From an uncultured virus (IMG/VR IMGVR_UViG_3300024243_000011) (Duplodnaviria; Heunggongvirae; Uroviricota; Caudoviricetes), in the IMG/VR virus record IMGVR_UViG_3300024243_000011, positions 1-64,000 of that record: a stretch of 64,000 nt of DNA. One strand, written 5' to 3'. Positions 45-38,716 of this stretch are shown here, in pieces. The notes under the pieces are model-generated. The model did no database searches and was not told the DNA's origin. It was given only the letters and a program-made list of their open reading frames with translations. A program made the position numbers and the translations under genes. Each line of letters opens with the position of its first letter. Position 1 is the stretch's first letter.

Positions 45-296
45 ATGTATAGATCTGAAAAAATATGGATTAAAAAAAGCTTTAAAGCTGATAATATAGA
101 ATATTATTATATTGGTCCAGCATTGATGGAACAAAAGAGCAGTACAGCCATTATATTGTTTCCAAATAAAATATTTATGAAAAACAATGCTAGTGGGTTA
201 TTTTTTAAGTCAGAAATTCCTGCTACAAAATATTTCCATTCAAACACAGTGAGAAGGTTGATTAGGTCTAACATAATAGAAAAACTGGAGGAATAA
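45..296 (+). CDS. small paralog-family protein (IW...YxGPA motif)
   Basis: KIWIKK...YYYIGPALM...IILFPNKI closely resembles ORFs 18421-19293. Confidence 0.6.
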   Translation: MYRSEKIWIKKSFKADNIEYYYIGPALMEQKSSTAIILFPNKIFMKNNASGLFFKSEIPATKYFHSNTVRRLIRSNIIEKLEE

Positions 297-298
297 AA

Positions 299-769
299 AT
301 GAAAGAAGAACTAGAAAAAAAGTTATATGAAAAATATCCTAAGATTTTTGCACAAAAAGATTTATCTCCACAAGAAACTTGTATGTGTTGGGGGTTGCCT
401 GGGGATGGGTGGTATGATTTAATTGATTGTTTGTGCGGTGTTGTTCAAAATATAGTTAATAATGCTGAGAGAACTAATAAGGTTGTTGATGATTGTATTG
501 CAAAGGGTGAAAAGCCACCATATGAAAAGGTCCATATTCCTTATGTGGAAGCTGGACAAGTTAAAGAAAAGTTTGGAACGTTGCGTTTTTATATTGATGG
601 TGGAAATGATGTGATCAACGGTGCAATTTGGATGGCAGAAAATATGTCAGCTTATATTTGTGAGAATTGTGGTGACTCAGGAAAACTTCGTGGTCGGGGT
701 TGGGTAAAAACATTATGTGATGGTTGTGCAAAAGAAAGTGACTCTAATGAGGGAAAGAAGGATGATTGA
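299..769 (+). CDS. conserved phage hypothetical protein with C-terminal CxxC pairs
   Basis: GDGWYDLI, QVKEKFGTLRFY, CENCG...TLCDGC motifs seen in a widespread phage hypothetical family. Confidence 0.6.
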   Translation: MKEELEKKLYEKYPKIFAQKDLSPQETCMCWGLPGDGWYDLIDCLCGVVQNIVNNAERTNKVVDDCIAKGEKPPYEKVHIPYVEAGQVKEKFGTLRFYIDGGNDVINGAIWMAENMSAYICENCGDSGKLRGRGWVKTLCDGCAKESDSNEGKKDD

Positions 770-945
770 GGGAGTTTTATCGCTAGTTGTTGGGTTTGTT
801 TTAATTGGCATTGGGTTTTTTGTTGGGACAAATGTTAAAATGTTCAAAGAGATTAATTTTGTTCAAAAATATTTGCCAGGAAAAGATGCTGAAGAGTATC
901 TTGAACTATATGATAAAATGATAGCTAATTACAAAAAAGATATAA

Positions 946-2080
946 TTGAAAATGCAAGTAAAAAATAATTATGCTTCTGGAGATCTTGTATGGGTTAAGA
1001 TTCCAAATATGGAAGATTTTCTTCCACATTATCATATTGTTTCTAATCATGGTGGGTATGTTGGGCTTGCTATAATCAGCTATAAGATTGGGATAGGAAA
1101 AGAAAATCCTATAAAATATAATTACGCTTGCAAGCTGCCAGTGAAATTTGAGTCTTTTTATGGTTTTAATGTTAGGGATGAATGGATCATTAGAAAGGTA
1201 AAATGAGCAAATATAAAATAGGTGATGTTGTTTGGGTTGATGGAAAGTTTTCAAATTGGGAATATAAATTGATCGGGCCAGTTGTTATTATGGGAGATGA
1301 AGTTGATATTATGTCAGGGCTTTATCGTTCTGATGCGGATTATATTGTTAATAGAGTTAATTATCATTTTGAACTTCTGGGATCAATAGTGAGATCTACA
1401 ATCAGAGAAGAGTGGATTAAATATAGGGTTAAAAATGCTTAAAAATTTAAGAGATATTAAAAAGGGTGATATAGTTTGGGTTAATAATTTAGAATATACT
1501 CCGTCGTGGATGCCTTCAAAATTAAAACTTTATAAACATAACTATGTTGGCTTTGGCATTGTTAGCTATAATCATTCAAGTAATTTTTCTATATTATTAA
1601 ATGTTTCACATATGGATGTAGATATTTTTTCTATTAATAAAAATAAAACAAAAAAATGGCTTGGAAAAAACACTAGTGTTACTATATTTGAACGTAAAGA
1701 GATTTGTTCAATTAGAAAGAATAAACACACTGCAAAATATGTTACAATAATAGGAAATATTAATGATTAGCTTAAACATTAATAAAGGAGACTTGTTATG
1801 GTTTAACAATGTTGAAATGCATGGTAATTTAGTTGAAGGAAATAAATATATACAAATTATTAAATATGTTGGGCCAGGGATTGTTAAGGAGGTTTTTGCA
1901 TATAATAATTGTTTCAAAGTTAAGCCATTAAATAATGTAGGGGTAGGGGAGATAATATATAAAATTATTGATGGAGAGGGGTTGGTGTATGATCAACATA
2001 ACACTAAAGGCGAGCGTTATTGTTTTCTTGTAGACAAGCGACAAGTTAAAAATCTAAATCAGATGATAAAAAGGATATAA
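946..2080 (+). CDS. four tandem small SH3/KOW-like paralogs (946-1206, 1203-1442, 1435-1770, 1763-2080)
   Basis: each has GD(L/V/I)(V/L)W followed by YxG(L/P/F)xI(I/V); genes have overlapping stop/start codons. Confidence 0.65.
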
Positions 2081-2081
2081 A

Positions 2082-5000
2082 ATGAAATATGCTTTAGTTC
2101 ACATTCACTCCAATTTTTCGACATTGGATGCACCTTCTAAGATAAAAAACATCGTCAAAAAGGCAAAAGATATTGGATGTCCTGGCGTATCAATTTCTGA
2201 TCATGGTGTTGCTGGCGGATTGTTGCAAGCATATAATGAATGTAAGTCGCAGGATATCAACTTTATTCCAGGTGTTGAATTTTATGTAAATAACAATAGA
2301 GACTTTAAAGACAAAACAAATAGAAAGAATTTTCACTTATGTTTATTTGCAAAAAACTATGAGGGTTATAAAGATTTAATTTGGTTACAAGGAGAGTCAA
2401 CATATAATTTTTATGGCAAGCCAAGGACAACAAATGAACTTATTTTACAAAAAGCAAAAAAAGGAAATCTTATATGCACAACCGCTTGTCTTGGTTCTGA
2501 ATTACATCATTATTTTAAAAACAATGAAATATGCTCAGCAAAAGAGTGGATAAAGAAGTATTACAATGTTTTTGGTGATGATCTTTACTTAGAACTACAA
2601 ATAAACGAACTTACAAAAGAACAAAAAGCTTATAATGATAAACTAATTCAGATTTCCAATAAGACAGGCATAAGTTTAACCCTGGGTTTAGACTCTCATT
2701 ATGTTGAAAAGGAAGATTGGTTTCTTCAACAGTTAACATTTCTCATTAGGGACAAAAAGACAGTAAAGAGCTTGGAAAGTAATGATGACTCTGGGGAGGA
2801 AAAGGGAAAGAAAGATGAGGCATGGCAATTTGAAACAAAAAGTCTTTGGATAAAAACACCTGAAGAAGTTATAGAGTGTAATAAGGAGTTTGGTTATAAT
2901 TATTCAATAGACTTTATTAAGAGGTTGTTTAGTTCAACTTTAGAAATCAACTCTAAGGTAGATGTTGAAATTCCTTTTTATGACTATAAGTTTCCTAAAC
3001 ACAAACATCAGGGTGACATATCTTCAAAACAATTATTGATCAACAAGGCTAAGAGTGGGTTAAAACAAAAGTTAAGTGAAGGTAAGGTTAAAGAAAAAGA
3101 CATACCTACTTATGTTGATAGAATAAAAGAAGAGATTGATGTCTTAACTAACCATGGAAGAGATTTCTCAGACTATTTTTTGTTTTTTGATGATATCAAG
3201 AACTTTGTATATGAACAAGGTGGTATGTTGGGTGCTGGTCGAGGTTCTGCTTGCGCCAGCTTGCTATTGTGGTTGCTTGATATAACGAAGCTAGATCCAA
3301 TAAAGGATGGTTTGATTTTCGAAAGGTTTATTAATAAAGCAAGGCTGGAGACAGATGCAGCAGATCTTGACATTGATATTAGTAGTGATGAGTTGCCGTT
3401 GGTCGAAGAGTGGCTAAAGAAAAGATATGGTGAACGCTCTGTTTGTTCTGTGGGCAATTACACTAAGTTCAGTATAAAAAATACAATAAAAGATGTTGCA
3501 AGGGCCTTGGCAGTTGATGATGACTTAAAAGTGATTAACAACATCACTAAAACATTAAATGATAAAAGTGAGGATGTCAATGAGGAGTGGGCATTAGCAG
3601 CAAAAAGGTTTAAAAAGAATTCTAGGGAATACAAATGGCTAGAAAAACATGAGAGAGATGTTCTTAAGTGGAGTAGCAAGTTGGTTGGCTGTATTAGAAA
3701 TGTGGGCCAACACGCTTCAGGGCTTGTTGTTGTGCCTGGAGAATTGTATGATCATGTTCCATTGTTGTATCATAAGAAAAAGACGTTGACAGCCTATGTA
3801 GAGGGCGTTGAATATCGAGAACTTCCACAAGTAGGGGTGTTAAAGTTAGATTTGCTTGGATTGTCAACAGCAGCTATTATTAACAATACAATAAAGTTGA
3901 TTAAAGAGAGACATGATGACTTTCCCTATGATCAAAAAACAATATTTGATATTGATAGAGAAGACAAGAATATTTTAGATGAGTTTGCAAAAGGGAACAC
4001 TGATAATTGTTTTCAGTTTGAGTCTGATGGCATGAAAAGCTTATTACAAAATATTTGTGTTAGTAGTTTTAGTGATGTTGTTTTGTGCAATGCATTATAT
4101 CGTCCTGGGGCTTTAGGTGCTAATATGCATAATGTGGCTGTTGAAAATAAATTTAAGGGTGATGATATTACATATGTGCATCCGAAAGTCAAAGGTATTG
4201 TAGAAAAGACCTACGGAGTTCCAGCATTTCAGGAGCAAGTTTTGTTCACATTGCAAAAAATTGGCAACTTAAGTTTAAGTGAGAGTGATTTGGCTAGAAA
4301 AACAATCAAAGCTTTAGGTAAGGCAAAGAAGAGTCCAGAAGAGTTAGAAAAGCTTAATGCATTTTTAAAAACATTTGCAAAGGGTGCAAAAGAAAATGGC
4401 CTTAATGATAAGGAGGTTAGCAAGATTTTAGAGTGGTTAAGAGCAAGCAGTGATTATTCATTCAACAAGTCACACTCAGCAGCATATTCATTAAACTCAT
4501 ATATTACGTTATGGTTAAAAAAGAATTATCCAATTGAATTCTTTACTGCTGTTTTAGCGAATGTACAATCTAACGAAGAAAAATTATATACAACTTTAAG
4601 TGAGGCAAGAAAAAATAATGTAAAAATAAATTATATCGATATTAATGAATCTGGTTGGGATTTTTTTATTGTTGATAATGAGATTTATTGTGGCTTTGGT
4701 TTTCTTAAGGGTACAAGTAAAAAAGATATTAACAAGGTGCTAGCTCTAAGGCCATTTACATCTATAAATGATTTTATACAAAAGGCATTGGAACATGGCA
4801 TATCAAAGAAAACAGTTTATCCATTGATTCAAACAGGTATTACGAGAAATATACATTCTAATGGTAGAGAATTAATAGAGATATATGAGAGAACAAAAAA
4901 GATTTGCAAAAGGAAAAGTTTTGAGTGGGATCAAATTGATGATATAATTACTGAAGTTAGCTTAGAAGATCTTAAGCCATACAACAAACAAGAACTTGTT

Positions 5001-5486
5001 GACTTTGAACTGAAGTATATTGGGTTTTATTTGCAATCAGATGTTTTGGCTATGTATGATAAATATATTCAAATGTTTGGTGCAATGCTAGTAAGTGAAA
5101 TGAATATAATGCCAAAACAAGTTTGTGTTAATAAGTATACCCAAAAAGAATCAACTGAATACAAATATCATATTTGCGGCATTATTGTTAACTCAGTGAT
5201 TAAGAAAACTAAAAAAGGAAAAGAATATAGAATTGTTGAAGTTTCAGATTATACAGGCAAGGCTAGCTCTGGGTTGTCATTTAAAATATGGGAGCCAAAG
5301 TTAATAGAAAAGTGTTATAATTCTGAAGCCAAGGATTTGCTGAGTAAGGGTTCTGTTGTTTTGGCTAAACTCTCAAAGAATGATTTTGGATATTCATTGC
5401 AAAAGTTTGATGTTAATAATATTGAAAACATGGATATATCAAAATTCCCATTTATTAACTTGAACATTTTAAGTTTGGAGGTTTAA
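2082..5486 (+). CDS. dnaE: DNA polymerase III alpha subunit (family C, PHP + polymerase + OB fold)
   Basis: HIHSNFSTLD, SDHG, GVEFY PHP motifs; GAGRGSA, FERFIN, DLDID, HASG, KLDLLGL, FQFES, FNKSHSAAY; no intein seen. Confidence 0.97.
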   Translation: MKYALVHIHSNFSTLDAPSKIKNIVKKAKDIGCPGVSISDHGVAGGLLQAYNECKSQDINFIPGVEFYVNNNRDFKDKTNRKNFHLCLFAKNYEGYKDLIWLQGESTYNFYGKPRTTNELILQKAKKGNLICTTACLGSELHHYFKNNEICSAKEWIKKYYNVFGDDLYLELQINELTKEQKAYNDKLIQISNKTGISLTLGLDSHYVEKEDWFLQQLTFLIRDKKTVKSLESNDDSGEEKGKKDEAWQFETKSLWIKTPEEVIECNKEFGYNYSIDFIKRLFSSTLEINSKVDVEIPFYDYKFPKHKHQGDISSKQLLINKAKSGLKQKLSEGKVKEKDIPTYVDRIKEEIDVLTNHGRDFSDYFLFFDDIKNFVYEQGGMLGAGRGSACASLLLWLLDITKLDPIKDGLIFERFINKARLETDAADLDIDISSDELPLVEEWLKKRYGERSVCSVGNYTKFSIKNTIKDVARALAVDDDLKVINNITKTLNDKSEDVNEEWALAAKRFKKNSREYKWLEKHERDVLKWSSKLVGCIRNVGQHASGLVVVPGELYDHVPLLYHKKKTLTAYVEGVEYRELPQVGVLKLDLLGLSTAAIINNTIKLIKERHDDFPYDQKTIFDIDREDKNILDEFAKGNTDNCFQFESDGMKSLLQNICVSSFSDVVLCNALYRPGALGANMHNVAVENKFKGDDITYVHPKVKGIVEKTYGVPAFQEQVLFTLQKIGNLSLSESDLARKTIKALGKAKKSPEELEKLNAFLKTFAKGAKENGLNDKEVSKILEWLRASSDYSFNKSHSAAYSLNSYITLWLKKNYPIEFFTAVLANVQSNEEKLYTTLSEARKNNVKINYIDINESGWDFFIVDNEIYCGFGFLKGTSKKDINKVLALRPFTSINDFIQKALEHGISKKTVYPLIQTGITRNIHSNGRELIEIYERTKKICKRKSFEWDQIDDIITEVSLEDLKPYNKQELVDFELKYIGFYLQSDVLAMYDKYIQMFGAMLVSEMNIMPKQVCVNKYTQKESTEYKYHICGIIVNSVIKKTKKGKEYRIVEVSDYTGKASSGLSFKIWEPKLIEKCYNSEAKDLLSKGSVVLAKLSKNDFGYSLQKFDVNNIENMDISKFPFINLNILSLEV

Positions 5487-5519
5487 AAAAATGAAAAGTT
5501 TTTTTTATTGGCTGGTACT

Positions 5520-5550
5520 GGTTAACAGAATGTTTTGTTTGTGCTATAAT
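5520..5550 (+). promoter_or_regulatory. GGTTAACA-N17-TATAAT promoter element
   Basis: ggttaaca gaatgttttgtttgtgc tataat. Confidence 0.75.
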
Positions 5551-5587: not shown

Positions 5588-6387
5588 TTGGATGGCTTAA
5601 TGAAAAACAAAAAATATAAAGTTGGTGAACATGTTTGGATTGATATAGGATTTTATTGTGGCCCTGCAATTATAGAGAAAGAGGACGTTGATGAAAAGTG
5701 GTTATTTGGCTATAATGTTAAAATTATGGGTGCAATGAAGGATAATATTTGGATTTCTAGAAAAGAAATTAAAGGGTTAAACAATGACAATGCCTAGATT
5801 GGTATTAGGGCAAAGGGTTAACTTGAAGGGTGATGTCGCATGGCTCTCTAGTTGTAGAGAAAGTGGTTATTATGAAGGGCCAGTTAGGTTAATATCTAAG
5901 TTTCATAATTTATATTTATGTGAAGTTCCAATGGAGGTTTTTATCGAATTTAGTTCAACAAGAAGAAAAAATAAAACTAGAAGCTTTTGGATTATGGAAG
6001 ATAAAATTAAAATGATTAAAAGGGCATAATAAAATGACTTATATACATAAAGATAAAAAGGAATGGGGTAGTTATAATAAAAATGATATTAATTATGGAA
6101 AATGGATTAAAAGATATAAAAATAACAAGATATATGAAATTTCTAAGTTATTAACTACAACAAAAAACTTATTAAATGGAACAAATAAATTATATGGTTT
6201 TAAAGTTGGTGAATTAGTTTGGGTTAATCATGAATTATATAGAGGGGTCGGGATAATAAAGCATTTTAGGTTTTTAGAACTGCAAAAGAGAGTTGTTGTT
6301 ACTAGCTCTTATCCTTTTGCGATTATAGCTAACAAATATGGCAAGAAAGATTTAGAATGTACAAAAGAAATGATAAGAAAAGCATGA
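5588..6387 (+). CDS. three small paralog-family proteins (5588-5797, 5784-6029, 6034-6387)
   Basis: YKVGEHVW..YCGPAII; GDVAW..YEGPV; FKVGELVW..YRGVGII. Confidence 0.6.
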
Positions 6388-7261: not shown

Positions 7262-7987
7262 TTGAAGAAGGAAAAAGTTTATATTTATCCAAATGAAAAA
7301 GAAAAAATTGGTTGTGTTGAATATGTCGATCACATGGGATCAGATAAAGATATTGTTAATGCGGCAAGAGCAAGTGTTGGTAAAGAAAGTAAAAAGCCAT
7401 TCTCAGAAAAAGATAGAGAGTTAATGAAATATCTTATAGAAAATAAACACACCAGTCCTTTTGAACATGTTAAGCTTAAGTGTAGGTTTACTGTTCCATT
7501 GTTTGTTAGAAGTCAACATATGAGGCACAGATTATGGAATTTCAATGAATTAAGTCGGAGATTCACAGACAAAGATATCCAATTTTATTTACCGAAATCA
7601 TTTAGGACACAACATGAAAATAATATACAAGCAAGTAACAATGACTCAATTAATCCAAAAATTCATACTTGTGTTTCTATGGGTGAAAGCAAATTAGCAG
7701 ATTTGTTAGTTGAGTCCACTACAAATAAATGTTTTATTGCATATCAAAAGTTATTAGATGCAAATATTACAAGAGAGCAAGCAAGAATGATTCTTCCTCA
7801 AAACTTATATACAACTTATATTGGAACCTGTGATCTTCATAATTTATTTCATTTTTTATCATTAAGGCTTGGTGAACATGCTCAATATGAAATTAGAGTT
7901 GTTGCTGAGGCATTATTGTATTATTGTGAACAGTTATTCCCGGAAGCGACAAGCTTATTTAAGGAGGTTAGGTTAGATGACATATAG
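7262..7987 (+). CDS. thyX: FAD-dependent thymidylate synthase
   Basis: IVNAARAS, HTSPFEH, RHR..FNELSRR, REQARMILP, LRL..HAQYEIR. Confidence 0.95.
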   Translation: MKKEKVYIYPNEKEKIGCVEYVDHMGSDKDIVNAARASVGKESKKPFSEKDRELMKYLIENKHTSPFEHVKLKCRFTVPLFVRSQHMRHRLWNFNELSRRFTDKDIQFYLPKSFRTQHENNIQASNNDSINPKIHTCVSMGESKLADLLVESTTNKCFIAYQKLLDANITREQARMILPQNLYTTYIGTCDLHNLFHFLSLRLGEHAQYEIRVVAEALLYYCEQLFPEATSLFKEVRLDDI

Positions 7988-8514
7988 AGCTTTTGAATCA
8001 CATAGTTGTTGTAGACTGAAAGATGGGTTTTTAGTTGAAGTGGGTGGGTCATATTGGGTTAATATCTGTGCTGATAGGGTTAGAAATTATAAAGGGCCAA
8101 TTGTTGTTGATAGTATTGAAGCTGTAGTTTTTGATGGTGATTATACTTTTAGCATAGGCGTAAAAAAGTCTATAGGTGGTTTTTGTTTTGTGACGTTCGA
8201 TGAGATAACGGTTATTTGTGAAATTTGATCCAAAAAGACTCGAAAAAAGGCAATATCTTCAACAAGTAAAGTGGGGTGATAATGTCAATATTAAGACAAA
8301 TAAAACATATTGGATAGCTGTTAACTTAGGTAAAAAACATTATAAATATTATTATGGGTTAGTATATATTATTAACATTAATGAAAATATTTTGTTTTAT
8401 GATGGTAAAAAACAGTGTTTAGACATAGTAATCATTGCAAAGTCACCAACAACAATTAATTGGGTAGTTTTCACATTAAACGATATAACTGATATAAAGG
8501 AGGTTAAATGTTAA
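7977..8514 (+). CDS. two small paralog-family proteins (7977-8228, 8218-8514)
   Basis: GGSYWV..YKGPIVV; KTYWI..YYGLVYI. Confidence 0.5.
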
Positions 8515-8862: not shown

Positions 8863-9282
8863 ATGAACGATATTACTATAAATATACCCAATAAAAGCTA
8901 TCAGTTTAAAGAAGGTGATTATGTTTGGGTTAACAATGCTGACTACAAGGGCTTAGGATTTGTTGATAGGGTTTCCAAATGGGATATTGAGAAAAGCCAA
9001 TATAAAATTTGTATAATTTCAAAAACTGACCAAAAAAAAATTAATGAAAGTTGGTACGCACCAGCATCAGCACCAACAGCAAAAAAAATAAAAGACATTA
9101 ATGTTAATGTTTATTCTACGATTCAAGGAGATATCCAAGGAGAGATCAGCAAAGAAATCTTTAATATGATGATGCACAATGTATATAACAATGAAAAAAT
9201 ATATTTAATAAACACTATGTTTAGCAAATATGAGGTTTTTAAAGAAATAGAAATAGAGTTGATGGAGGAAAAAAATGAGTGA
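8863..9282 (+). CDS. paralog-family protein with C-terminal extension
   Basis: FKEGDYVWVN..YKGLGFV. Confidence 0.55.
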   Translation: MNDITINIPNKSYQFKEGDYVWVNNADYKGLGFVDRVSKWDIEKSQYKICIISKTDQKKINESWYAPASAPTAKKIKDINVNVYSTIQGDIQGEISKEIFNMMMHNVYNNEKIYLINTMFSKYEVFKEIEIELMEEKNE

Positions 9283-16985: not shown

Positions 16986-16992
16986 GTTTTTC

Positions 16993-22326: not shown

Positions 22327-22327
22327 A

Positions 22328-24088: not shown

Positions 24089-24111
24089 AAAATAAAAAAC
24101 TTTCAAAAAGT

Positions 24112-24142
24112 GGTTAACAAACAAAGTTGTTTATGATATAGT
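24112..24142 (+). promoter_or_regulatory. GGTTAACA-N17 promoter element
   Basis: ggttaaca aacaaagttgtttatga tatagt. Confidence 0.8.
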
Positions 24143-24188
24143 GTGGTTATGTTCGGTTGCAGTTGACAACAACAAGAAGGAGAAACCG

Positions 24189-24461
24189 ATGGAAAGCATA
24201 ACTGAGAAAGAGAGGAAAGTTCTTCAGGGTATTATTACTAATGATTTTCAGGATGCCGCAACTGGAACTGAGGCTGTGATTATGAATGATATTTGGGTTG
24301 ATTGCCTGGAAGATTCCACAGGAGATATTCGGGGAAAAATTTTGTCTGGTGTGGTTTCTAGCCTTTCTAAAAAAGGCCTTGTCTGGACTGATGGGGAAGG
24401 TATCGCAATAACTAAGGAGGGATGGACCGTTCTGAACTCAACGAATAGCGAAGAGGAATAA
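24189..24461 (+). CDS. putative winged-helix protein (start revised to ATG 24189)
   Basis: ITEKERKVL...LSGVVSSLSKKGLV....I.ITKEG wHTH-like pattern. Confidence 0.55.
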   Translation: MESITEKERKVLQGIITNDFQDAATGTEAVIMNDIWVDCLEDSTGDIRGKILSGVVSSLSKKGLVWTDGEGIAITKEGWTVLNSTNSEEE

Positions 24462-24484
24462 AAAATAAAAAACTTTCAAAAAGT

Positions 24485-24515
24485 GGTTAACAAACAGGAG
24501 GAAGTGTGATATAAA
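24485..24515 (+). promoter_or_regulatory. GGTTAACA-N17 promoter element
   Basis: ggttaaca aacaggaggaagtgtga tataaa. Confidence 0.75.
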
Positions 24516-24572
24516 GGTTTCGAAATAAAGGTTGGTAAGTTTAAATTCTAGACGGTTAAAAGGAGGTTTATT

Positions 24573-25718
24573 GTGGCAAAGCTTAACGTAAAATCAGCAC
24601 TGAAGGTTCTTGATAATCTGCCGAAAGAGCAGGCCGTTCTCGTTGATGGCCCTCATGGTATTGGCAAGAGTACTATCTTTAGAGATCTTGCAAAGAAGAG
24701 AAATGCACATTTTATCGATATGCGGCTCTCACAGGTTGAGTATGTAGATCTGATTGGTATGCCTCAGTCTGTTAATGGAGAAATGATCTACTCGTCCCCT
24801 TGGTGGCGACGGGAGATTGAGGCATGTGCAGAGAGAGGACAGAACGTTGTTCTCCTTCTTGATGAGATTAACCGTGCTCATCGTGATGTTCTCCAGTCAG
24901 TGTTTCAGTTGATTCTGGATCGTCGTATCCAGGATTGGGCACTTCCATCCAACGTTGACGTGTGGGTGTATGGTGCAGTCAACATGGGTGATGACTATGA
25001 CGTGTCTATGATGGACCCTGCACTGTTGGATCGTTTCTATCGGTTTACCCTTGAGCCATCACCGGCAGAGTGGCTGAGGTGGTCAAAGAGCGTTGGTATC
25101 CATCGTGCAATTCACATGTTCATTGAAAAGAACCATAACTATTTGTATTTCACTGGCACGCCTGAAGAGGGCCGGATTTATCCTTCTCCTCGTTCATGGG
25201 CTATGCTTTCTAATTGTATGAATCTAAACAAAAAACTTGTTGACGATCATCATGCTCTTACTCTTCTCTCAATGGGTTTTGTTGGTGAAGAAGGGGCAAC
25301 TAGGTTTGTTGACTTTGTAAAGAAGGAGTTTAATCAAATGACAGCAAAAGACATTCTTGAAAAATGGAAGGACCGGGGGCAGGATATTACTGAACTGGTA
25401 ACTGATGATGTGGTTGAGGCTTCAACTCTCATGGATCAGTGCATTGAGTTTTTCCGTGCAAAGGGAGAGGATGGGGTTAAGCCTCGTCACATTAAGAACT
25501 TTACTGAGTATATGTTGATTGTCCCACTGGATGTGATCAACTATGCATGGCAGGCTCTCCAGGAGTACACTGAGGATGGTGGTGACGTAAAGAACATCAA
25601 CTTTGTGGCCTCAAAGCTTGGTGATGATGAGCGGATCAGGACTAGGGTGGTGGAAGCCAATAGCGAGTGGATCAGGGAAGAGCAGGAGAAAGTAAAGAAG
25701 GGTGCCGAGGGCGAATAA
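24573..25718 (+). CDS. MoxR-like AAA+ ATPase
   Basis: Walker A GPHGIGKS, DLIGMP, Walker B LLLDEINRA, MDPALLDRF, SPRSW. Confidence 0.92.
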   Translation: MAKLNVKSALKVLDNLPKEQAVLVDGPHGIGKSTIFRDLAKKRNAHFIDMRLSQVEYVDLIGMPQSVNGEMIYSSPWWRREIEACAERGQNVVLLLDEINRAHRDVLQSVFQLILDRRIQDWALPSNVDVWVYGAVNMGDDYDVSMMDPALLDRFYRFTLEPSPAEWLRWSKSVGIHRAIHMFIEKNHNYLYFTGTPEEGRIYPSPRSWAMLSNCMNLNKKLVDDHHALTLLSMGFVGEEGATRFVDFVKKEFNQMTAKDILEKWKDRGQDITELVTDDVVEASTLMDQCIEFFRAKGEDGVKPRHIKNFTEYMLIVPLDVINYAWQALQEYTEDGGDVKNINFVASKLGDDERIRTRVVEANSEWIREEQEKVKKGAEGE

Positions 25719-25736
25719 ACAACAAGCAGTTCTTTG

Positions 25737-25763
25737 GGGGGCGCAATGCCCCCTTACTTATTT
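25737..25763 (+). terminator. probable intrinsic terminator
   Basis: gggggc-gcaat-gccccc followed by T-rich tract after the ATPase gene. Confidence 0.6.
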
Positions 25764-25797
25764 CTTTGGTAATAACAATCAACAATGAGGTTGTCTT

Positions 25798-26322
25798 ATG
25801 GGAAGACTAAAAGGTACAATTAACAAAAAGACTCTTGCAAAGAAAGCAATTGCATATTCTTTAGGGGACATAAAAAAGCTTTCAGAAAGCATATTGAATA
25901 AAATGTATCGCAATAATATTATTGATGAGAACACAGACAAGCCAACCAGTGATTGTTATAAGTTAATGTCACTTGAAGAATATAAGAATATTAAATCAGG
26001 CAAGAAGAAGAAAAAGCAACAAGAGGCAACGGAAACAACAAACATCACAAAGTACTTCTTTTATAAAACAAGCAATCTAAAGAAGTTTGGCACAAAAAAA
26101 TATATTTGGAAAATGGTTGATCGAGACTATGGACTTCAGGTTCATGGCATCAATGAGATAGAAGCAAAGTTATTTGCAAAGCATATTAATTGCATAATAT
26201 ACGCTGAAGAGCTTATGGGTAATAAAAAAGAAAAGTTTTATTGTTTCAAAAAACAGTATTCAAATATGATATCAGCAAGAAAGTGGGCGAAGCAATCAGG
26301 CTTTGAGTTTATAAAGGAGTGA
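25798..26322 (+). CDS. basic hypothetical protein
   Basis: MGRLKGT.NKKT AT-hook-like start. Confidence 0.55.
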   Translation: MGRLKGTINKKTLAKKAIAYSLGDIKKLSESILNKMYRNNIIDENTDKPTSDCYKLMSLEEYKNIKSGKKKKKQQEATETTNITKYFFYKTSNLKKFGTKKYIWKMVDRDYGLQVHGINEIEAKLFAKHINCIIYAEELMGNKKEKFYCFKKQYSNMISARKWAKQSGFEFIKE

Positions 26323-27007: not shown

Positions 27008-27286
27008 ATGAGCACTATCTTATGGCTATTATTAATATTGTTTGTTGCGTTCTTAGGAACATTTCAATTATTAGCATTAATGTTTATTATAATGTTCTTA
27101 GTAGCATGTACACCAGCAATTGTTGTGTTGACTATTGGAATATACTTAACAATAAAGATAGGTGGGTTCATTGGTGCATTGTTGGTAATATTAACATTGT
27201 TTGGTGCAGGGTTTGTAACTTATCATTGGTTCGAAAGTGGAGCAGTTGATGCAATTACAAAGACCCTTGGTATGGACAATTGGTAA
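27008..27286 (+). CDS. hydrophobic membrane protein
   Basis: nearly entirely hydrophobic, 2-3 TM segments. Confidence 0.6.
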   Translation: MSTILWLLLILFVAFLGTFQLLALMFIIMFLVACTPAIVVLTIGIYLTIKIGGFIGALLVILTLFGAGFVTYHWFESGAVDAITKTLGMDNW

Positions 27287-27540
27287 AAGAAATAAAAAAA
27301 TGGAACAAAGGTGATATTGTTTGGGTCAAAGTAAATACTTATATGTGTGGATCAGAAAGCGAAAAGAGATATGATAACCCTCCTCTATATAAAGGACCAG
27401 CAATTATTGTCAGTGTTAATTACAATTTAAGTTATAGGCCTATATATAGAATCAAAACAATGTATGATCGCAATGTCTTGTACAATTATAATTATAGAAT
27501 AACAGAAGAAAATATATTGTACAAGATACCCCAAGGTTAA
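27280..27540 (+). CDS. small paralog-family protein
   Basis: NKGDIVWVK..YKGPAII..ITEENILYKI. Confidence 0.65.
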   Translation: MVKEIKKWNKGDIVWVKVNTYMCGSESEKRYDNPPLYKGPAIIVSVNYNLSYRPIYRIKTMYDRNVLYNYNYRITEENILYKIPQG

Positions 27541-28095: not shown

Positions 28096-28126
28096 GGTTA
28101 ACAAATCAAGGTACTTATGGTATAGT
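28096..28126 (+). promoter_or_regulatory. GGTTAACA-N17 promoter element
   Basis: ggttaaca aatcaaggtacttatgg tatagt. Confidence 0.8.
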
Positions 28127-29183: not shown

Positions 29184-29214
29184 GGTTAACAAACAGAGTT
29201 GATTGTGGTATAAG
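29184..29214 (+). promoter_or_regulatory. GGTTAACA-N17 promoter element
   Basis: ggttaaca aacagagttgattgtgg tataag. Confidence 0.8.
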
Positions 29215-29221
29215 GGTATTC

Positions 29222-30736
29222 ATGAAAATGGAAAAAATACAACTTAGTGATCTTAGGGCTGCAAGCAAACCATATATATGTTGGCTTAAGATTGATAGGG
29301 AACTGGCTATAAATTTAGGTTGGCATTTTTATTATAATCATAATGGTCTAGTTACTATATATTGTGATTGTAATGAGCGATTAACAATTAAATTTCTGCA
29401 TATGTTTAAACAAATATCTTCTTATACTTATAGGTCAGGGATAGCATTTAATCGGATTAATTTAAATGACAATTTAAACATTAATAAGTTTTTTGATTAT
29501 TGTTATAATAACGATAGGTTATTTATTGTTAATAAGGGAGGTTAAAAATGAAAGTATTGGAAAGCATGGTTTATGTTGGTAATCGTATTTTGTTTAGCAT
29601 GGTATTGCTTATGCTTATGTGTGTCTATGCATATCTTGCGCCATGGGGTATTGGGAATGTTGCAATGAATTTATTTGTGTTATGTGTTTCAGCATTTCTT
29701 TATGTTGTGGTTTGGGTTCCATATGCGAAGCTGAGCCTTCGTTATGAGCTTGTAAGAATTAAGAATAAGTATAGAAATGAGCAATAATAAAAACAATACG
29801 TTTAATGCTGGTGATGTTGTTTGTGTACAATTACCAAGTGATCCTAAAGAATGTGGTTGGACAAATGGAAAGTCTACTTATACTGGATATAATGGAATTG
29901 TTTTAATAATGGAAGAGTGTGACTTTACATACACTTCTTTTGATTATAAAATTAAAATACTTGGAACAAAAAAACAACGTGATCAGTTTTTTGTAAGAAC
30001 CAATTGGATCACACACAAATTAAGCAATGGAGGAAACAATGAGGTCAAATGGATTAAGTGTAAATGAGTTATTCAATTTGATGCAGACTTTAAAATCTGC
30101 TGGTCATGGTGATTGCGAGGTATTGATTCGTTCTATTGATGAGATTACATGCAATGTTTTTACAGATAAGTACACAATGTATATTTTGGGTGATAATAAT
30201 TGTCTCTCTAAGATCGACCCAGAATCGACTGGCGAGAAGCCTAATGTCATTGTATTAGAATATTGACAGGATTGATTGTGGGCTAAATTTGGTTTTATTG
30301 GTATTGATTTGGGGCTTTATATGTGCAATAAAAAAGTGATAAAAATAAAGGCTGGACAATGGCATAACTTAGGTTTAAAAGAGGGGAAGAAATATCTTAT
30401 ATGGTTGGTTGTTAATGGTGATCTTAATAATAAAGAGTTAAATTGATGGACAATAAATATAAAGTAGGTGATGTTATATTTTGCAAAGCATATTATTATA
30501 ATTATAGAAAAGATGTTTATTATAATAAAAAAGATATTGATAATAAATATTACTATATGGCTGATGATGCAGGTGATATTTATTATTATGGTGTTGGCAT
30601 AATAGCTGGTTATAGAACTAGTGGTATGTATCATGATCATGATGCTATATATTTAGTTAATGGCATTGCCAGTGGTATTAATAATTATGATCATGATTCA
30701 ATGGTGGTTCGAGAGAGGGATATAATGCAAGGTTGA
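29222..30736 (+). CDS. run of small hypothetical proteins (29222-29545, 29548-29787 membrane, 29777-30067 paralog, 30027-30266, 30443-30736 paralog)
   Basis: FNAGDVVCV..YNGIVLI and YKVGDVIFC..YYGVGII match the paralog family. Confidence 0.55.
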
Positions 30737-30790: not shown

Positions 30791-30821
30791 GGTTAACAAA
30801 CAGGAGTGATTATGGTATAAG
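30791..30821 (+). promoter_or_regulatory. GGTTAACA-N17 promoter element
   Basis: ggttaaca aacaggagtgattatgg tataag. Confidence 0.8.
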
Positions 30822-31980: not shown

Positions 31981-32732
31981 ATGTCTTCTAATTCTTATTC
32001 TAAGGTTTATATTCCTATAAAAATTGGTCGTTCTAGTTATTGCTATGGTTGTGACGTTGATTATTATAACCAGAATGAGATTAATGTGGCAGATCGTATT
32101 TCTATTGTTCTCCAAGTTGAGGGTATTCTTAATGTTAAAAATATTATTAATTGGCATGTACACATGAACAATATTAAAAATGATGTTAATAGAAAGGTTA
32201 AAGGGTAAAGGTTTCAATGATATGTCCTATTAATCCTGGTGTTTATTTTTTGAGACAAAGCCAAACAAGTGACTTTTTAAACATTAATGATATTCTTCCT
32301 TTGTCAATTAAATATAAGGACTATTCAGGTTTAGTTTTTATTAAAGGTTTTGTTTGTAATGCTAAGAAGGGCCGAGTAGTTTTTAAGGTTAAGGTTTTGG
32401 GTTATGATAGGTCATGTTATCTGAGATGTTTTATTGGTAATTTAATAAAGGTTGAGTGTTAAATGAGTTATTCTGATCAGTTTTATATGGGAAGAGGCTT
32501 TTATTGGATTGATGGGCTATCAATATATAATTCAGATATTGGGTATCCAATTAGATATTATGGCTTGGCTTTAATTAATGATTTTTTTCAAAACACAAAA
32601 GGACAAAATTTTGTTAAGTTTCATGTTTTAATGGGTGGCGCAATAAAGAAGAGAGAGTTTTATTATCAGGTTTGGGGTGATGATTTTAAAAAAATAAAGT
32701 TTATTGAAAAAACAGGAGGGCAAGATGAATGA
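31981..32732 (+). CDS. three small proteins (31981-32208; 32217-32462 and 32463-32732 divergent paralogs)
   Basis: YSGLVFI and GFYWI..YYGLALI motifs. Confidence 0.5.
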
Positions 32733-33131: not shown

Positions 33132-33162
33132 GGTTAACAAATGTGATAGTTTGTGGTATAAG
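33132..33162 (+). promoter_or_regulatory. GGTTAACA-N17 promoter element
   Basis: ggttaaca aatgtgatagtttgtgg tataag. Confidence 0.8.
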
Positions 33163-33819: not shown

Positions 33820-33850
33820 GGTTAACAAACGGACTTGTTTATGGTATAAG
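33820..33850 (+). promoter_or_regulatory. GGTTAACA-N17 promoter element
   Basis: ggttaaca aacggacttgtttatgg tataag. Confidence 0.8.
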
Positions 33851-35008: not shown

Positions 35009-35507
35009 TAAGAAAACATACCTCACGTCAGATTTTCATTTTGGCCATGAGAACATTATAAAGTTTTGCAATAGGCCATTTAAAAATCGACATCAAATGG
35101 ACTCAGCTATGATTGACAATTACAATTCAATAGTTGCTGATGATGATATTGTTTTCATTCTTGGTGATTTTTCTATGTCAAATAATAGAGAGGTCATTTC
35201 TTCTTATTGCAATAAACTTAAGGGACAAAAACATTTAATACTTGGCAATCATGATAGGATGAGGCCTTTTGCATATGTTGACTGTGGCTTTGCATCTGTT
35301 CATACATCTTATGTTTTAGAAAAATATAATTTATTTATGGTTCATGATCCTGCTGTTTGTGTTGTTGGTAAACAGATGGGATACAATTGTGTTTGTGGTC
35401 ATATCCATAATTTATTTAAGTTTCATAATGGTGTTCTTAATGTTGGCGTTGATGTTAGTGATTTTAAACCGATATCAATTGACAAGGTAATGGAACATTA
35501 TGTTTGA
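34878..35507 (+). CDS. calcineurin-like metallophosphoesterase (true start probably near 35001)
   Basis: TSDFHFGH, LGD, GNHD, H, GHIH, NVGVD. Confidence 0.9.
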   Translation: MIKWLTMVFLMVVLKRGVFQTKRRRHMTRRDRESGIGEKKLIVDKKTYLTSDFHFGHENIIKFCNRPFKNRHQMDSAMIDNYNSIVADDDIVFILGDFSMSNNREVISSYCNKLKGQKHLILGNHDRMRPFAYVDCGFASVHTSYVLEKYNLFMVHDPAVCVVGKQMGYNCVCGHIHNLFKFHNGVLNVGVDVSDFKPISIDKVMEHYV

Positions 35508-36094
35508 TGTTGGAGATGTAGTTTGGATTGGTGAGGCTAATGTAGTAAAAAGTCATTTAATGAACTTATATATTGCCAACAAAGTTAAAGATAAGTTTGG
35601 TATTGTTGTTGGCTTTAATGGCTCGTTTAATAAAAATAATGCAGATGTTTATGTCAAAGTTAAAATTAATTATAATGCAAAAAGAGATTCTTGGAATTTT
35701 ATAGGAATAGAAGACAATACATCTATTGTGTTTCTTTTTGATCATGATTGTGATTGTTTATCATTGGTAAAGAAAAATGGCTGATAAAAATAAAAAACTT
35801 AACATAGTTCCAAACTATAAAATTGGTGATGTTGTGTGGGTTAAGTGTGCCCTTGAAGAATCTAATTATTATGAAATTTATTTATATAATAATAATATTG
35901 ATCAATATAAAAATGATTTTAATGAGAATTCATTTGTTGGTGTTGCAATTATTAATTATGTTGAATTATATTTAGGCGCTGACAAATATGATTTTGAAAG
36001 TCCAGAATTAAACTTTATTACATATGAAGTTTATTTATCTAACGGGGTGTTCCACTCCATATCGGAACATGAGATATTATATAAAATAGGATAA
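35500..36094 (+). CDS. two paralog-family proteins (35500-35784, 35777-36094)
   Basis: VGDVVWI..FGIVV; YKIGDVVWVK..FVGVAII..ISEHEILYKI. Confidence 0.6.
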
Positions 36095-36097
36095 CAA

Positions 36098-37409
36098 ATG
36101 GTTATTAACAATAAAGGTAAGTGTAAAAAGTTAAGTTTATATCAGAGGATAAAGATTATTAATTATAATCAATCTGCGTTCTTTTATATGTTTATACTTA
36201 ATTTTATATTGTTTAATATTTTTGCTTTGTTTTTTTTGGCATTTAATGTTTATTCTTGTGGTTTTATTGTTATTTCATATTCAATATCATCTGTATTATA
36301 TTTATTGTTTGATTTTTTTAAATTTCATTCTATTGATAACATTATAAGAAATTGGAATAATTATTTTTCAATTGAAGATAATAATTTATTTTTTGTATCA
36401 TTTAAGATGGAGCCATTTATGTTTGATGTTGATTATATTGCTAAAAAATATTTTAAAGATAGTGGTCCTTATCATTTTTCTTGTCGATTAAATGCGTATG
36501 ATTATTTAGATAATAATGTTAAAAATAGACAATATAATGGGCTGATTAAGATTGATTTTAAAAACTCTAAATTATATAGTAATAATGACATTGTGTTTTT
36601 TAGTGAAAGTAAGAAAGGTTTTAACGGAATTAATAATAGGTTTATTGATGATATGTTTTTAGAGTTATCTTTTTATGTTTTTACTGATAATAAAATGTTG
36701 TATTTAAATCATTTTGTAGGTAGTTTTGATAAATTTTATATAGTAGAAAATCATGATTAATTTTTTTAAACAATTTAAGCTTGATTTTAAAAAGTTAAGT
36801 TATATTTATAAAATGTTGTTTTGTTCTATTTATGGAAATGATGCTTATTTTGTTGTATTTGCTTTACCTGCTATTTGTCTTGTGTTGTCTGCTGTTTGTT
36901 TAAGCATAAGCAGTCTCCCTTCCCTTTATTATCTAATGGTTATTTTTTGTTGCATTTTTATGTTTGTGTGTGTTATATTTTCTATTGTTTGTAGAGTACT
37001 TGATGATAAATATATATCTGAAATATTTGATAATTTAGTTTATTTGGAAAGTGGTAAAATTTATTGGGTTGATAACTTTTGTTATAATAAAATAGACTTT
37101 ATTGATAGTAATAAAAATAAATTTATTAATAATTTTTTTGGTATTGTTAAAGTTTGTTATATTGGCGAATGTTCATACTCTTTTGAGAGATGTAGTCATG
37201 ATAATTTTTTCATATTAAAAGATCGATATCGTTTAAATGGTAATAAATATATTAAAGGATTTAATAGGTATTATGAGTTGGTTCTTAGATTAAGTGGGAA
37301 TAATAATGAAGATATAAAGCTTGGTTTTTCTGGATCTTCTTTTCTTGAGCGAACTGATTATAGTTTTGATGGTATAAAAGAAATTAATATGGAGGAGACA
37401 AATGGCTAG
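36098..37409 (+). CDS. two related membrane proteins (36098-36760, 36753-37409)
   Basis: two N-terminal TM helices each; soluble part has GKIYWV/FFGIVK or YNGLIK paralog-like motifs. Confidence 0.55.
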
Positions 37410-38166
37410 TTATGATTCACATTATTATTTTTGTGCTTGTATGTGCAAAGAGCTAGGTTTATCTGAGAAAGCAATAAAAAATGTTGCTTGGGCAAATCAG
37501 GCAATTGATGAAATGACTCCAAGAAAATTGCAACAGCATATTGGTTCGTCTGCGAAGAAAATGGTTTCGACACAGTGTTATGATTTTGATTGGTGGAAGA
37601 GTTCTGATTATCCTGATCCAAGAACAATAATTTGGAAGAAGTTTCATTTTCCTGATATTATTACATGTCATATAAAAGATATTTGTAAGCTTATTTCTGA
37701 TGATCGAATGAATATCGATCATGATTTATATAATCAGTTATTGTTGGGCAGGTATTTTCATACATATATGGATAGTTTTACTCATCAAGGATTTTTACCT
37801 TATTGTTCTGACAAGAATAAAAATAATTTGAAGGGTAGACCATGGAAAGAATTTTGGAAGAAAGTCCCACCTTCAATTGGTCATGCTGAGTTTGGAAATG
37901 AGCCAGATGAAATAGATATGGTATGGTATAATCAACTTGGTGATGTTGTCGATAATAAGAAAAGGTGGATTCAAATAGTTCAAACTGCAAGAGAACATTT
38001 AATGAAGTTTTTTCCTGATTGTATTGATTTGATTGTTGGCTATTATGATAAGGGTTCTAGGGTCAAGGCGATGAAAGAATATTCTGGAATTGGGGAGTCT
38101 TGGAAATGGAGTGATAAAAAAATAATGGTAATGCAGAATATTGTTAAGAGGGAGTTTTTTGGATAA
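37402..38166 (+). CDS. phospholipase C/P1 nuclease-like (DUF6765-like) protein
   Basis: HYY, QAID, FHF, LG.YFHTYMDSFTHQGF, IGHA zinc-ligand pattern. Confidence 0.55.
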   Translation: MASYDSHYYFCACMCKELGLSEKAIKNVAWANQAIDEMTPRKLQQHIGSSAKKMVSTQCYDFDWWKSSDYPDPRTIIWKKFHFPDIITCHIKDICKLISDDRMNIDHDLYNQLLLGRYFHTYMDSFTHQGFLPYCSDKNKNNLKGRPWKEFWKKVPPSIGHAEFGNEPDEIDMVWYNQLGDVVDNKKRWIQIVQTAREHLMKFFPDCIDLIVGYYDKGSRVKAMKEYSGIGESWKWSDKKIMVMQNIVKREFFG

Positions 38167-38716
38167 ATTTAAGAATGTTATATATGATGATCAAGTTGTG
38201 CTTAAGAGACATATTATAGATAGGTTTATTGAGAATTATAATAATGGTTTAAAGCTTGGTAATGTTGTTTGGACTAAAGTATATGAATTTATGTGTAATG
38301 ACAATCGTTTAAGTTTTGAAGAGTATGACAAGAAATATGTAGAAAATAATTGTTTGTCTGATTGTATAGTTTATGATGGGTTAGCGATTGTCAGTAATCA
38401 GGATTGTGATGGTGAAATTGATGATGACTTAAGATATGAAAATGTATGTGGGTTGAGTCTTGATAGTTTCGATAAATATTTTGTTGATTTAGAGTTTTTG
38501 GATGGTGTTGGAGAAGTTTGCCGTAAAATAAATCGTGATATTTTAACTCAAAGGCTTTTCTTTATGAATGATTATTGTTATTATGATGCAAAGATAGATA
38601 AGTTTTTTTATTATGTTAGCTTTCCTTTTGATATTGCCGTTAAAAGTATTATGGGTAAGTCTGTTTTTAGGTGTAATTATTTTGATGTTCTTGAAGATAA
38701 CATTAAGGCAATTTAA
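38141..38716 (+). CDS. extended paralog-family protein
   Basis: LGNVVWTK..YDGLAIV. Confidence 0.5.
   Translation: MLRGSFLDKFKNVIYDDQVVLKRHIIDRFIENYNNGLKLGNVVWTKVYEFMCNDNRLSFEEYDKKYVENNCLSDCIVYDGLAIVSNQDCDGEIDDDLRYENVCGLSLDSFDKYFVDLEFLDGVGEVCRKINRDILTQRLFFMNDYCYYDAKIDKFFYYVSFPFDIAVKSIMGKSVFRCNYFDVLEDNIKAI

Follow-up and report, generated by a model that had tools for sequence, protein, structure and literature searches.

A family of about 35 small, divergent paralogs in an uncultured seawater phage, with a predicted SH3-like barrel in its core group

The window analysed here is a 64,000-nucleotide stretch of DNA from an uncultured tailed virus (IMG/VR record IMGVR_UViG_3300024243_000011); it corresponds to the opening 64 kb of a record of 76,331 bp and has a G+C content of ~30%. 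We found that the first 38.7 kb of the window encode about 35 members of one family of small, divergent proteins. These stand-alone proteins of 65-110 residues share the consensus YKxGDxVWV ... YxGPAxI ... YxVxLP ... IxExEIKYxI. The core group is predicted to fold as a small beta-barrel, in which a set of anchor positions is conserved and three loops vary. Family genes are associated with promoter-like sites, their number differs between assemblies of the same phage, and further arrays occur in other phages. A reading that we regard as about evenly poised between right and wrong is that the family constitutes a set of small, early-expressed binding modules that serve in host takeover or in counter-defence.

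Identification of the family

Motifs were counted in the six-frame open reading frames (ORFs) of the window, and the expected numbers were taken from 200 block shuffles. The motif K.GD.[VIL]W was observed 9 times against 0.035 expected, and Y.G[PLVIFA][AGVICP][IVL][IVL] was observed 25 times against 1.3 expected, with a largest shuffle of 5. Both motifs fell within a single ORF in 12 cases and in none of the 200 shuffles, which bears out the first and second shared anchors described in the initial annotation. All of these matches lay within 1-39000, and 0 lay in 39001-64000. An all-against-all phmmer comparison connected many of the small ORFs. An iterated in-genome hidden Markov model (HMM) retrieved 27 of the 815 six-frame segments at E<1e-3; in a leave-one-out analysis, 21 of these 27 remained under that threshold.

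HMMER was run with an alignment of 19 members (A1) against 1.84 billion representative proteins, and 57 proteins were retrieved at E<=0.001, ~19 of them from the same phage. Three matches (P0009, P0019 and P0042) proved to be long repeat proteins and were set aside as false positives. The remaining matches were metagenome proteins of 62-118 residues with the sharp consensus MKYKxGDxVWV..YxGPAxI..YxVxLP..W.I.E.EIKY.I. A second alignment (A2) consisted of 35 proteins from other metagenomic phages plus P0024, a paralog encoded upstream of the window in the same phage, and held zero window sequences. The A2 HMM matched 17 window segments at E<1e-3, 21 at <0.01, 28 at <0.1 and 39 at <1, and the best control values were E 0.36 and 0.92 (reversed and shuffled sequences). 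A larger HMM was built from 104 non-redundant members, excluding all of the group B, HRxDGPA-tail and weak ORFs described below. It matched 37 segments at E<0.1, compared with 0/815 reversed and 0/815 shuffled segments. Searching the 76-kb record with a model of the members, in line with a check proposed at the outset, recovered family ORFs with all three models.

All family matches lay within 42-38716, and none was found past 38,716 in the 76-kb record. The 37 segments total 10.8 kb, or 28% of the first 38.7 kb. Segment 13572-14039 is probably a false match, and two segments are pieces of one decayed gene; the count is therefore ~35 genes, which agrees with the 30-35 divergent paralogs originally claimed. 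The third anchor of the initial annotation, (I/V).E.(E/W)I..K, was also real and corresponds to profile positions 68-77. When single ORFs were aligned to A2 with hhalign, 14 ORFs reached >=90% and 7 ORFs 50-90%. ORFs outside the family and its subgroups gave <=3.1%, except for a NUDIX protein at 9.9%. With profiles lacking the ORF in question, ~21 core ORFs were assigned to the family. At E<0.1 with the 104-member HMM and zero control matches, so were 5/6 group B ORFs and 4/4 HRxDGPA tails, together with 7 weak ORFs or fragments.

Core and divergent members

The ~21 ORFs of core group A lie mainly on the plus strand; below, E values are from the A2 HMM unless stated otherwise, and percentages are hhalign values. 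Four genes follow one another at 946-1206 (E 5.2e-12, 97.2%), 1203-1442 (E 1.1e-11, 97.5%), 1435-1770 (E 6.7e-6, 91.1%) and 1763-2080 (E 0.0014, 79%). The genes at 5588-5797 (E 7e-11, 97.8%) and 5784-6029 (E 2.1e-5, 91.3%; 104-member HMM without it, E 0.0029) are succeeded by 6034-6387. This last member carries an N-terminal extension, with the domain at about residues 48-116 (68.3%, E only 1.3), and was paired by phmmer (E 2.6e-7) with 8863-9282, a member with an acidic C-terminal extension (65.5%, E 0.031). Further plus-strand core members are located at 16088-16318 (E 0.0011, 87%), 17929-18156 (E 9.7e-4, 90.1%), 21808-22062 (E 6e-7, 95.5%; mechanical ORF from 21646), 27280-27540 (E 3.5e-12, 97.9%), 29777-30067 (E 8.8e-10, 96.9%) and 35777-36094 (E 2.8e-9, 97.7%). 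On the minus strand, core members were found at 19637-19960 (E 1.3e-13, 97.8%), 20599-20799 (E 5.4e-5, 91.5%), 20804-21037 (E 3.6e-6, 95%; mechanical ORF to 21082) and 21034-21237 (E 8.5e-9, 96.9%).

Three further plus-strand genes complete the group: 30443-30736 is a member with a Tyr/Asp-rich loop of 20-odd residues (85.6%, E 0.04), 35500-35784 is a probable member (54.7%; 104-member HMM without it, E 0.0026), and 38141-38716 encodes a protein of 191 aa in which the domain occupies roughly residues 28-108 and is followed by a C-terminal extension (E 7.3e-4, 54.8%). Four divergent plus-strand ORFs gave E 0.0025-0.036 with the 104-member HMM. Two are probable members: 7977-8228 (E 0.0092; 8.5%, 58 columns in register) and 22286-22678, which has a long insertion between motifs 1 and 2 (E 0.0025; 25%). 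The other two, 8218-8514 (E 0.036; 1.3%) and 32463-32732 (E 0.021; A2 HMM E 0.043; 3.9%), are possible members. The ORF at 32217 was not placed in the family by hhalign or by the 104-member HMM, and that at 28187 was weak in every membership test run.

Two ORFs were rejected, namely the transmembrane protein 36753-37409 (hhalign 0.4%) and its neighbour 36098-36760 (0.1%); the claim that the domain also appears behind transmembrane helices at 36753 therefore did not hold. These neighbouring proteins of 218-220 aa (36098-37409) have N-terminal membrane helices and Asn/Phe/Tyr-rich C-terminal parts, and no family was found for either. Antisense long ORFs at 925-1254 (-) and 30317-30640 (-) cover the true family genes 946-1206 and 30443-30736. 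A longest-ORF gene caller would choose the wrong strand at both sites.

Predicted fold of the core group

The product of 27280-27537 was modelled by AlphaFold2 (AF2) with alignment A1, which yielded a mean local confidence (pLDDT) of 81 and a global score (pTM) of 0.71. The model contains five strands (residues 13-18, 37-48, 54-60, 72-74 and 79-82) without a long helix. Among 48,161 Protein Data Bank (PDB) representatives, its best structural neighbours were Tudor, chromo-barrel, PWWP, BAH, KOW and PsaE domains, with Z 7.8-5.8 over 51-71 aligned residues. The best neighbour was the Tudor domain 6if4 (Z 7.8, root-mean-square deviation 1.9 Å, 59 residues), followed by the MRG15 chromo-barrel 2f5k (Z 7.5), 4qqg (Z 7.2) and 6kco (Z 6.8). 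The neighbours also included SAWADEE, SGF29, PWWP, 53BP1 Tudor, PsaE, R67 DHFR and the SPbeta protein YorP, as well as the KOW domains of NusG, Spt5 and DSIF (NusG/Spt5, Z 6.1-6.4). In the ESM Atlas, structure matches were Hva1_TUDOR, NifZ, PemK and Tudor-knot (TM 0.56-0.64), and the three nearest feature clusters were viral and unnamed. These results support the prediction that the core group is an SH3-like small beta-barrel of the Tudor/chromo/KOW/PsaE class, as the initial annotation had guessed for the domain at large. A two-copy co-fold of 27280-27537 with alignment A1 gave a score of 0.14, the mark being 0.42.

By sequence, the family is uncatalogued in Pfam, PHROGs, NCBIfam and PADLOC. 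The 37 window ORFs had no TUDOR, Tudor-knot, Chromo, PWWP or Agenet match in Pfam at E<=0.1, and 36 outside members had no royal-family match at E<=0.01; KOW (PF00467) matched none of these 37 and 36 proteins. Among the window ORFs, three PHROGs matches near E 0.01 were all of unknown function, as was a single match (E 3e-4) among the outside members. NCBIfam and PADLOC had no match for the family. BFVD gave weak unnamed matches only (best E 5e-3), and the outside members are named only "hypothetical protein" in their sources. The nearest solved protein by sequence was the ribosomal protein eL21 (YKVGDIV..YHGKTGVV), which is itself an SH3-like barrel; the alignment was full-length and its E value of 0.25 non-significant. 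Nothing in the genome matched Ribosomal_L21e (PF01157) at E<=1. The nearest named ESM Atlas cluster, DUF3104 (PF11302; 0.89), was tried as a candidate and was likewise without a genome match at E<=1.

Conserved anchors and variable loops

Conservation was assessed in the alignment of the 104 members; identity between members of the family is ~20-30%. About 14 anchor positions were kept in 58-97% of the members. Trp17 was the most conserved (97%), followed by Asp14, Val16 and Gly33 (90%), Gly13 (89%), Tyr31 (86%), Lys11 (82%), Tyr10 (77%), Tyr50 (73%), Ile37 (69%), Pro34 (67%) and Ile73 (62%). The conserved aromatic residues are thus Y10, W17, Y31 and Y50. Judged from the alignment, the anchor positions presumably form the barrel framework. 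Three loops consisted of columns below 1 bit and accommodated insertions of up to 21, 17 and 16 residues, and the variability between the anchors noted at first sight was thereby borne out; the notion of a diversifying scaffold fits this pattern. The face with which SH3-like barrels usually bind a ligand is bordered by the loops that follow strands 1, 2 and 3. A survey of the SH3-like barrel fold is available (10.1101/140376). Binders with differing targets would be expected to combine a constant scaffold with loops free to vary, which is not proof that the proteins are such binders. The isoelectric point (pI) of the members ranged from 4.4 to 9.9, with many acidic members, so that the family has no single charge type. 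Plausible ribosome-binding sites and tight start/stop overlaps have been retained.

Group B and the HRxDGPA-repeat genes

Two further sets of ORFs resemble the domain and appear, on their sequences, to be weaker subgroups than core group A. Group B (IWIHK..YIGPAI..lFPxKI) comprises six ORFs, 4/6 of which stand in tandem on the minus strand at 18149-19293. These are 18149-18424 (104-member HMM E 0.0032, hhalign 31.4%), 18421-18678 (E 5.1e-5; A2 HMM E 8.5e-4), 18736-18993 (E 0.031) and 19030-19293 (E 0.0025). The two plus-strand ORFs were linked to 18736-18993 by phmmer: 45-296, with the variant IWIKK..YIGPAL (phmmer E 1.2e-6; A2 HMM E 0.0027; 104-member HMM E 0.016), and 16650-16979, the weakest of the group (phmmer E 1.2e-4; 104-member HMM only E 0.17). 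The group B profile (A3) aligned to A2 with an hhalign value of 70.6% (E 3.9e-5, 45 columns) and to A1 with 11% only. A search of the ESM Atlas for group B gave nothing usable.

The second set consists of four intact genes with HRxDGPA repeats, in which the last repeat and tail (..WWLN..YTGPIIIMG..IRFMK..YLVIEE) resemble the domain at E 0.014-0.092 with the 104-member HMM. Three of them are lead genes, located at 17572-17925 (+; E 0.038), 19957-20310 (-; E 0.092) and 21234-21656 (-; E 0.014), and the fourth, 22675-23061 (+; E 0.024), is the last gene of its unit. In the relatives with a G+C content of 0.41, the tail also bears the LPIEV motif (hhalign 33%, 26 columns). The HRxDGPA repeat unit and the first half of the barrel gave a low-scoring alignment (P 0.11). 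In Pfam, the HRxDGPA genes matched only DUF6745 (E 2.7e-4, under the cut-off); PF07661 MORN_2 matched nothing in the genome at E<=1, and no PDB sequence relative was found for the proteins. Upstream of the window in the same phage (L037:15419-20026), three ORFs of ~300-400 aa gave E 1e-46 to 1e-66 against the HRxDGPA-protein profile; larger proteins of the phage thus contain the repeat as well.

Promoter-like sites and gene arrangement

An element of 35-70 nt formed a repeat family of 13 copies. Its core, GTTAACA-N14-20-TRKKATA, occurred 12 times against 0.08 expected, spanning 5516-57911, and reads as TTAACA, 17 nt and an extended -10 (TG-n-TATAAT-like). To judge from these letters, the element is probably the phage's class of promoter for host RNA polymerase (sigma-70-like). 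Plus-strand sites of repeat family D5 were located at 5516-5550, 5' of member 5588, and at 17525-17553, 5' of the HRxDGPA gene 17572. A sigma-70-like site of repeat family D1 (TTAACA-17-TATAAT with TG; 16957-16985, +) precedes the decayed gene described below. On the minus strand, a site at 19641-19669 (11 of 12, TG) lies 5' of the group B array, and sites at 20335-20364 and 21681-21710 (element cores at 20337-20364 and 21683-21710) lie 5' of the HRxDGPA genes 19957-20310 and 21234-21656. A plus-strand core at 21753-21780 lies 5' of member 21808-22062. Further copies of the core include those at 23044-23071, 28097-28124, 29185-29212, 30792-30819, 33133-33160, 33821-33848 and 38738-38765. Several mechanical ORFs contain spurious WLTN..VCGIRVL peptides, which are explained as translations of the element.

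Of the four HRxDGPA genes, three have a promoter-like site 5' and barrel genes directly 3'. The order is 17572 then 17929, 20310-19957 then 19960-19637, and 21656-21234 then three members, the first being 21034-21237. The linkage of an HRxDGPA gene to a barrel array recurred in two other phage lineages, as it did upstream in the window phage itself.

Copy-number turnover and decay

A 699-bp stretch (18488-19186) is missing from an IMG/VR assembly of the same phage and is bounded by a 13-nt direct repeat at 18475-18487 and 19174-19186. In blastn, the variant appeared as two 100% high-scoring segment pairs with a 13-nt overlap. The deletion, a junction known from assemblies alone, is in-frame, and a chimeric ORF (L021:4804-5001) replaces three group B genes, among them 18736-18993. 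Repeats were also observed between adjacent copies: the 60-nt repeat D12, at 19030-19293, is 90% identical with a spacing of 294, and the 57-nt repeat D14, at 20599-20799, is 82% identical with a spacing of 202 nt.

One gene has decayed (16981-17273, +) and is split over two frames, which matched the 104-member HMM at E 1.3e-4 and 0.015. It starts with YKVGDTIWIK at 16981-17103 (frame beginning MKRKSYKVGDTIWIK) and continues in a shifted frame at 17037-17273 with an HRxDGPA repeat and tail. Its first strand is equally like barrel strand 1 and the HRxDGPA repeat (G.K.W.LNG), and a common origin of the barrel and the repeat is possible on this resemblance.

Best pairwise E values among paralogs were mostly 1e-5 to 1e-9. 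The phage contributed 30 rows, of which 29 are distinct and one is a partial duplicate; the best match lay within the phage in 16 cases and in other phages in 13, with none in 1, and all were weak. These results indicated that most duplications are old or that the genes evolve fast.

Occurrence in the same and other phages

The IMG/VR copy of the phage contained 27 group A matches at E<=0.01, 12 of them upstream of the window, where two further HRxDGPA-tail genes were also found. There are thus at least ~48 copies in 145 kb of phage sequence. Other loci were collected by scanning JGI metagenomes for the motif and scoring the finds with the HMM; as they were chosen by motif, only the extra copies at each locus are unbiased. 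Locus L144 carried 12 copies in 20 kb on a 60.9-kb contig without DNA similarity to the window phage. L127 held 5 copies in 1.8 kb, L097 4 copies, and L128, L117 and L186 3 copies each; the G+C content of L127, L097, L128 and L117 was 0.41. The array neighbours in other phages included DnaE (65% DNA identity to that of the window), NAD ligase, ThyX, Dam, a TET-associated glycosyltransferase, RtcB and Rnl2, and a Gp23-type capsid protein on one contig.

A scan of 185,579 prokaryote species, one genome each, gave 30 motif matches and no convincing family member; of the matches that could be named, some were MazF-like ORFs, one a phage baseplate-like protein and others long repeat proteins. A word-based protein search with A1 returned only proteins of the same phage, and with A2 it returned 9 unnamed metagenome proteins. 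A tblastn search of the GenBank phage collection with member 19637-19960 gave no match. In the databases searched, the family is confined to a few uncultured phages, mostly from seawater or marine records. No publication on this family was found in the open-access literature on phage paralog expansions, MORN repeats and gene accordions.

Source and neighbouring genes

DNA 100% identical to the window was found in a 92.7-kb IMG/VR contig and a 145.6-kb metagenome contig. Window position 1 corresponds to about position 69,313 of the latter, and over the 20 kb compared the identity was 99.995%, with one residue change (T to P) in the group B gene 18421-18678. Proteins identical to those of the window are encoded on a 216,854-bp contig, which makes the window a piece of a jumbo phage. 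The phage DNA was present in 24 seawater DNA runs. In the GenBank phage collection nothing close was found, all matches of the window DnaE being <30% identical.

The family genes lie among replication and nucleotide-metabolism genes. The window encodes a DnaE-type polymerase (2082-5486), ThyX, dUTPase, NUDIX, a MoxR-like ATPase, dCMP deaminase and a CCA-adding enzyme, as well as a ClpP-type prohead protease and an SLT lysin; no tRNA genes were found in it. At 40393-42576, an IMPDH/GMP-reductase-like gene lies immediately 5' of a gene for a short, 361-aa adenylosuccinate-synthetase-like protein. The latter was under all NCBIfam cut-offs (PurA 240 bits vs 402, PurZ 125 vs 300) and also matched a PHROG annotated as PurZ-type. 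The MoxR-like AAA_5 ATPase (24573-25718) is carried on a G+C island at 24000-26000 (0.417 vs ~0.30 in the surroundings), far from its likely partner, a DUF2201 VWA/metallopeptidase protein at 48715-50310. From 59065 to the window end at 64000 and on to 76.3 kb of the record, there is a long run of GT2 glycosyltransferase, carbamoyltransferase and other 300-430-aa genes, which looks like a sugar-modification cluster.

Discussion

From the features of the family, and from the roles that small early genes usually play in phages, we infer a repertoire of binding modules. According to this proposal, repeated local duplication and deep divergence would have given rise to the ~35 genes of the window. 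The genes stand in short units behind sigma-70-like, extended -10 promoter-like sites, several of these units being led by an HRxDGPA beta-hairpin-repeat gene, and the proteins would be made early in infection. The conserved anchors would supply the barrel framework and leave the three loops beside the ligand face free to vary, so that each barrel might bind its own target among host or phage macromolecules.

Several observations weigh against this proposal. The case for early expression comes from the promoter-like motifs only, and none of the 24 seawater runs listed with the stretch was an RNA run. The decayed copy and the deletion variant indicated that some copies are dispensable. The AF2 alignment consisted of paralogs only, and Foldseek found no PDB match at E<=0.001, its best rows being Tip60/MRG chromo-barrels and BAH domains. 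Z values of 6-8 are usual for models without a clear match, so that the fold call depends on the uniform class of the neighbours and on no single strong match. The AF2 model of group B (18736-18993) was unusable (pLDDT 53), and the barrel guess therefore stands for the core group only. The profile of the HRxDGPA tails (A4) aligned to A2 at an hhalign value of only 8.7%, with 12 confident columns, so that the link between these tails and the domain, drawn from the second motif in the initial annotation, is a weak one. Finally, no fused forms of the domain, which might have pointed to a partner, were found in the word-based search with A2, which is weak evidence.

The main rival, which we consider unlikely yet well worth weighing, holds that the barrels are nucleic-acid-binding regulators of the KOW, LSm or eL21 kind, acting on phage or host RNA or DNA, for example in mRNA stability, antitermination or translation, and not protein binders. 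The only full-length PDB sequence resemblance, non-significant as it is, was to eL21; KOW domains of NusG and Spt5 appeared among the structural neighbours; the genes lie among those of DNA and RNA metabolism; and the early T4 protein GoF, one mutant of which stabilises an mRNA, offers a precedent in the accessible part of PMC12152347. One shared binding mode would, however, be an unlikely fit to proteins whose pI runs from acidic to basic, Pfam gave zero KOW, LSm and L21e matches, and T4 GoF and MotB.1 aligned to the family at hhalign values of only 0.1% and 0.2%. Beyond the GoF mutant, no assigned function was found in the literature for such early mini-proteins. A more specific form of the binding proposal is a germline-encoded library in which each barrel neutralises or recruits a different host protein, such as a defence component. 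Its diversity would come from duplication, microhomology deletion and chimeras, and the HRxDGPA leads would serve as scaffold source or hub. We regard this version as rather improbable; if it were true, the family would be a viral counterpart of a diversified recognition repertoire, common to a clade of marine large phages.

That most copies are near-neutral by-products of a duplication-prone region, with one or a few that matter, would account for the frame-broken copy at 16981-17273, the truncated chimeric gene left by the 699-bp deletion in one assembly and the high divergence of the paralogs. We judge it quite improbable, as ~35 open frames hold the same ~14 anchors at 20-30% identity, the same residues recur in phages without DNA similarity (G+C 0.41 vs 0.30), ribosome-binding sites and tight start/stop overlaps are maintained, and phage genomes rarely retain 28% of a 39-kb region as ballast. 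A derivation from shrunken MazF/PemK-type toxins, which are likewise SH3-like barrels and carry a GD.V.V strand at the N-terminus, with the proteins acting as toxins or toxin-antitoxin decoys, seems very unlikely. The prokaryote scan did yield MazF-like ORFs starting MNKYKQGDLVWV..RPAIIVS (NCBIfam MazF E 6.8e-6, below the cut-off), and a PemK cluster stood in the ESM Atlas list (TM 0.60). Those ORFs, however, had been picked by the typed motif itself, PF02452 PemK_toxin was absent from the genome at E<=1 and from the 37 and 36 members at E<=0.1 or 0.01, and MazF/CcdB chains numbered 0 among the 50 best structural neighbours. Moreover, a PemK/MazF toxin has ~110 residues and a C-terminal helix, whereas the members have 65-110 aa and the model five strands without a long helix. 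We give almost no credence to the possibility, allowed for in the initial annotation, that unrelated ORFs share these motifs merely by chance, owing to the AT-rich sequence. The low identity between members and the failure of the ORFs at 36753 and 36098 would fit it; the double-motif ORFs absent from all shuffles, the 37 profile matches against 0 in the controls and the recovery of window ORFs by an HMM built almost wholly from other phages' proteins all contradict it.

Whichever of these explanations applies, the window offers a test set of ~35 natural variants of one scaffold, with a confident core model, clear anchors, relatives in other phages and observable copy-number change. Should each member prove to have its own target, the family would provide new host-takeover or counter-defence factors and a natural case of loop-diversified mini-binders. 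If they do not, the family shows how large a share of a jumbo phage genome can be occupied by one fast-turning gene family.

Royal-family domains read chromatin in eukaryotes and hold methyl-lysine or methyl-arginine in an aromatic cage. Like the Tudor, chromo-barrel and PWWP members of that family, which were its best structural neighbours, the modelled protein is predicted to be a five-strand bent barrel of ~60 residues; unlike them, it has no royal-family sequence match in Pfam. With KOW and eL21 barrels it shares the first strand, K.GD.V.V, and to our knowledge an invariant Trp and a YxGPA motif are not features of the KOW motif. [quoted passage not shown] According to the accessible part of the Viral AlphaFold Database report (PMC12487901), SH3/Tudor-like clusters are the largest, fourth and fifth largest of the structural clusters found only in bacterial viruses. 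The initial description of the expansion as very unusual was in this respect overstated. The proteins of the window resemble those clusters in being small, phage-only and SH3/Tudor-like, and differ from them in that the clusters are spread across phages, whereas here dozens of paralogs occupy a single genome. The sequence family is uncatalogued, and its kind, the small SH3/Tudor-like phage barrel, is already known.

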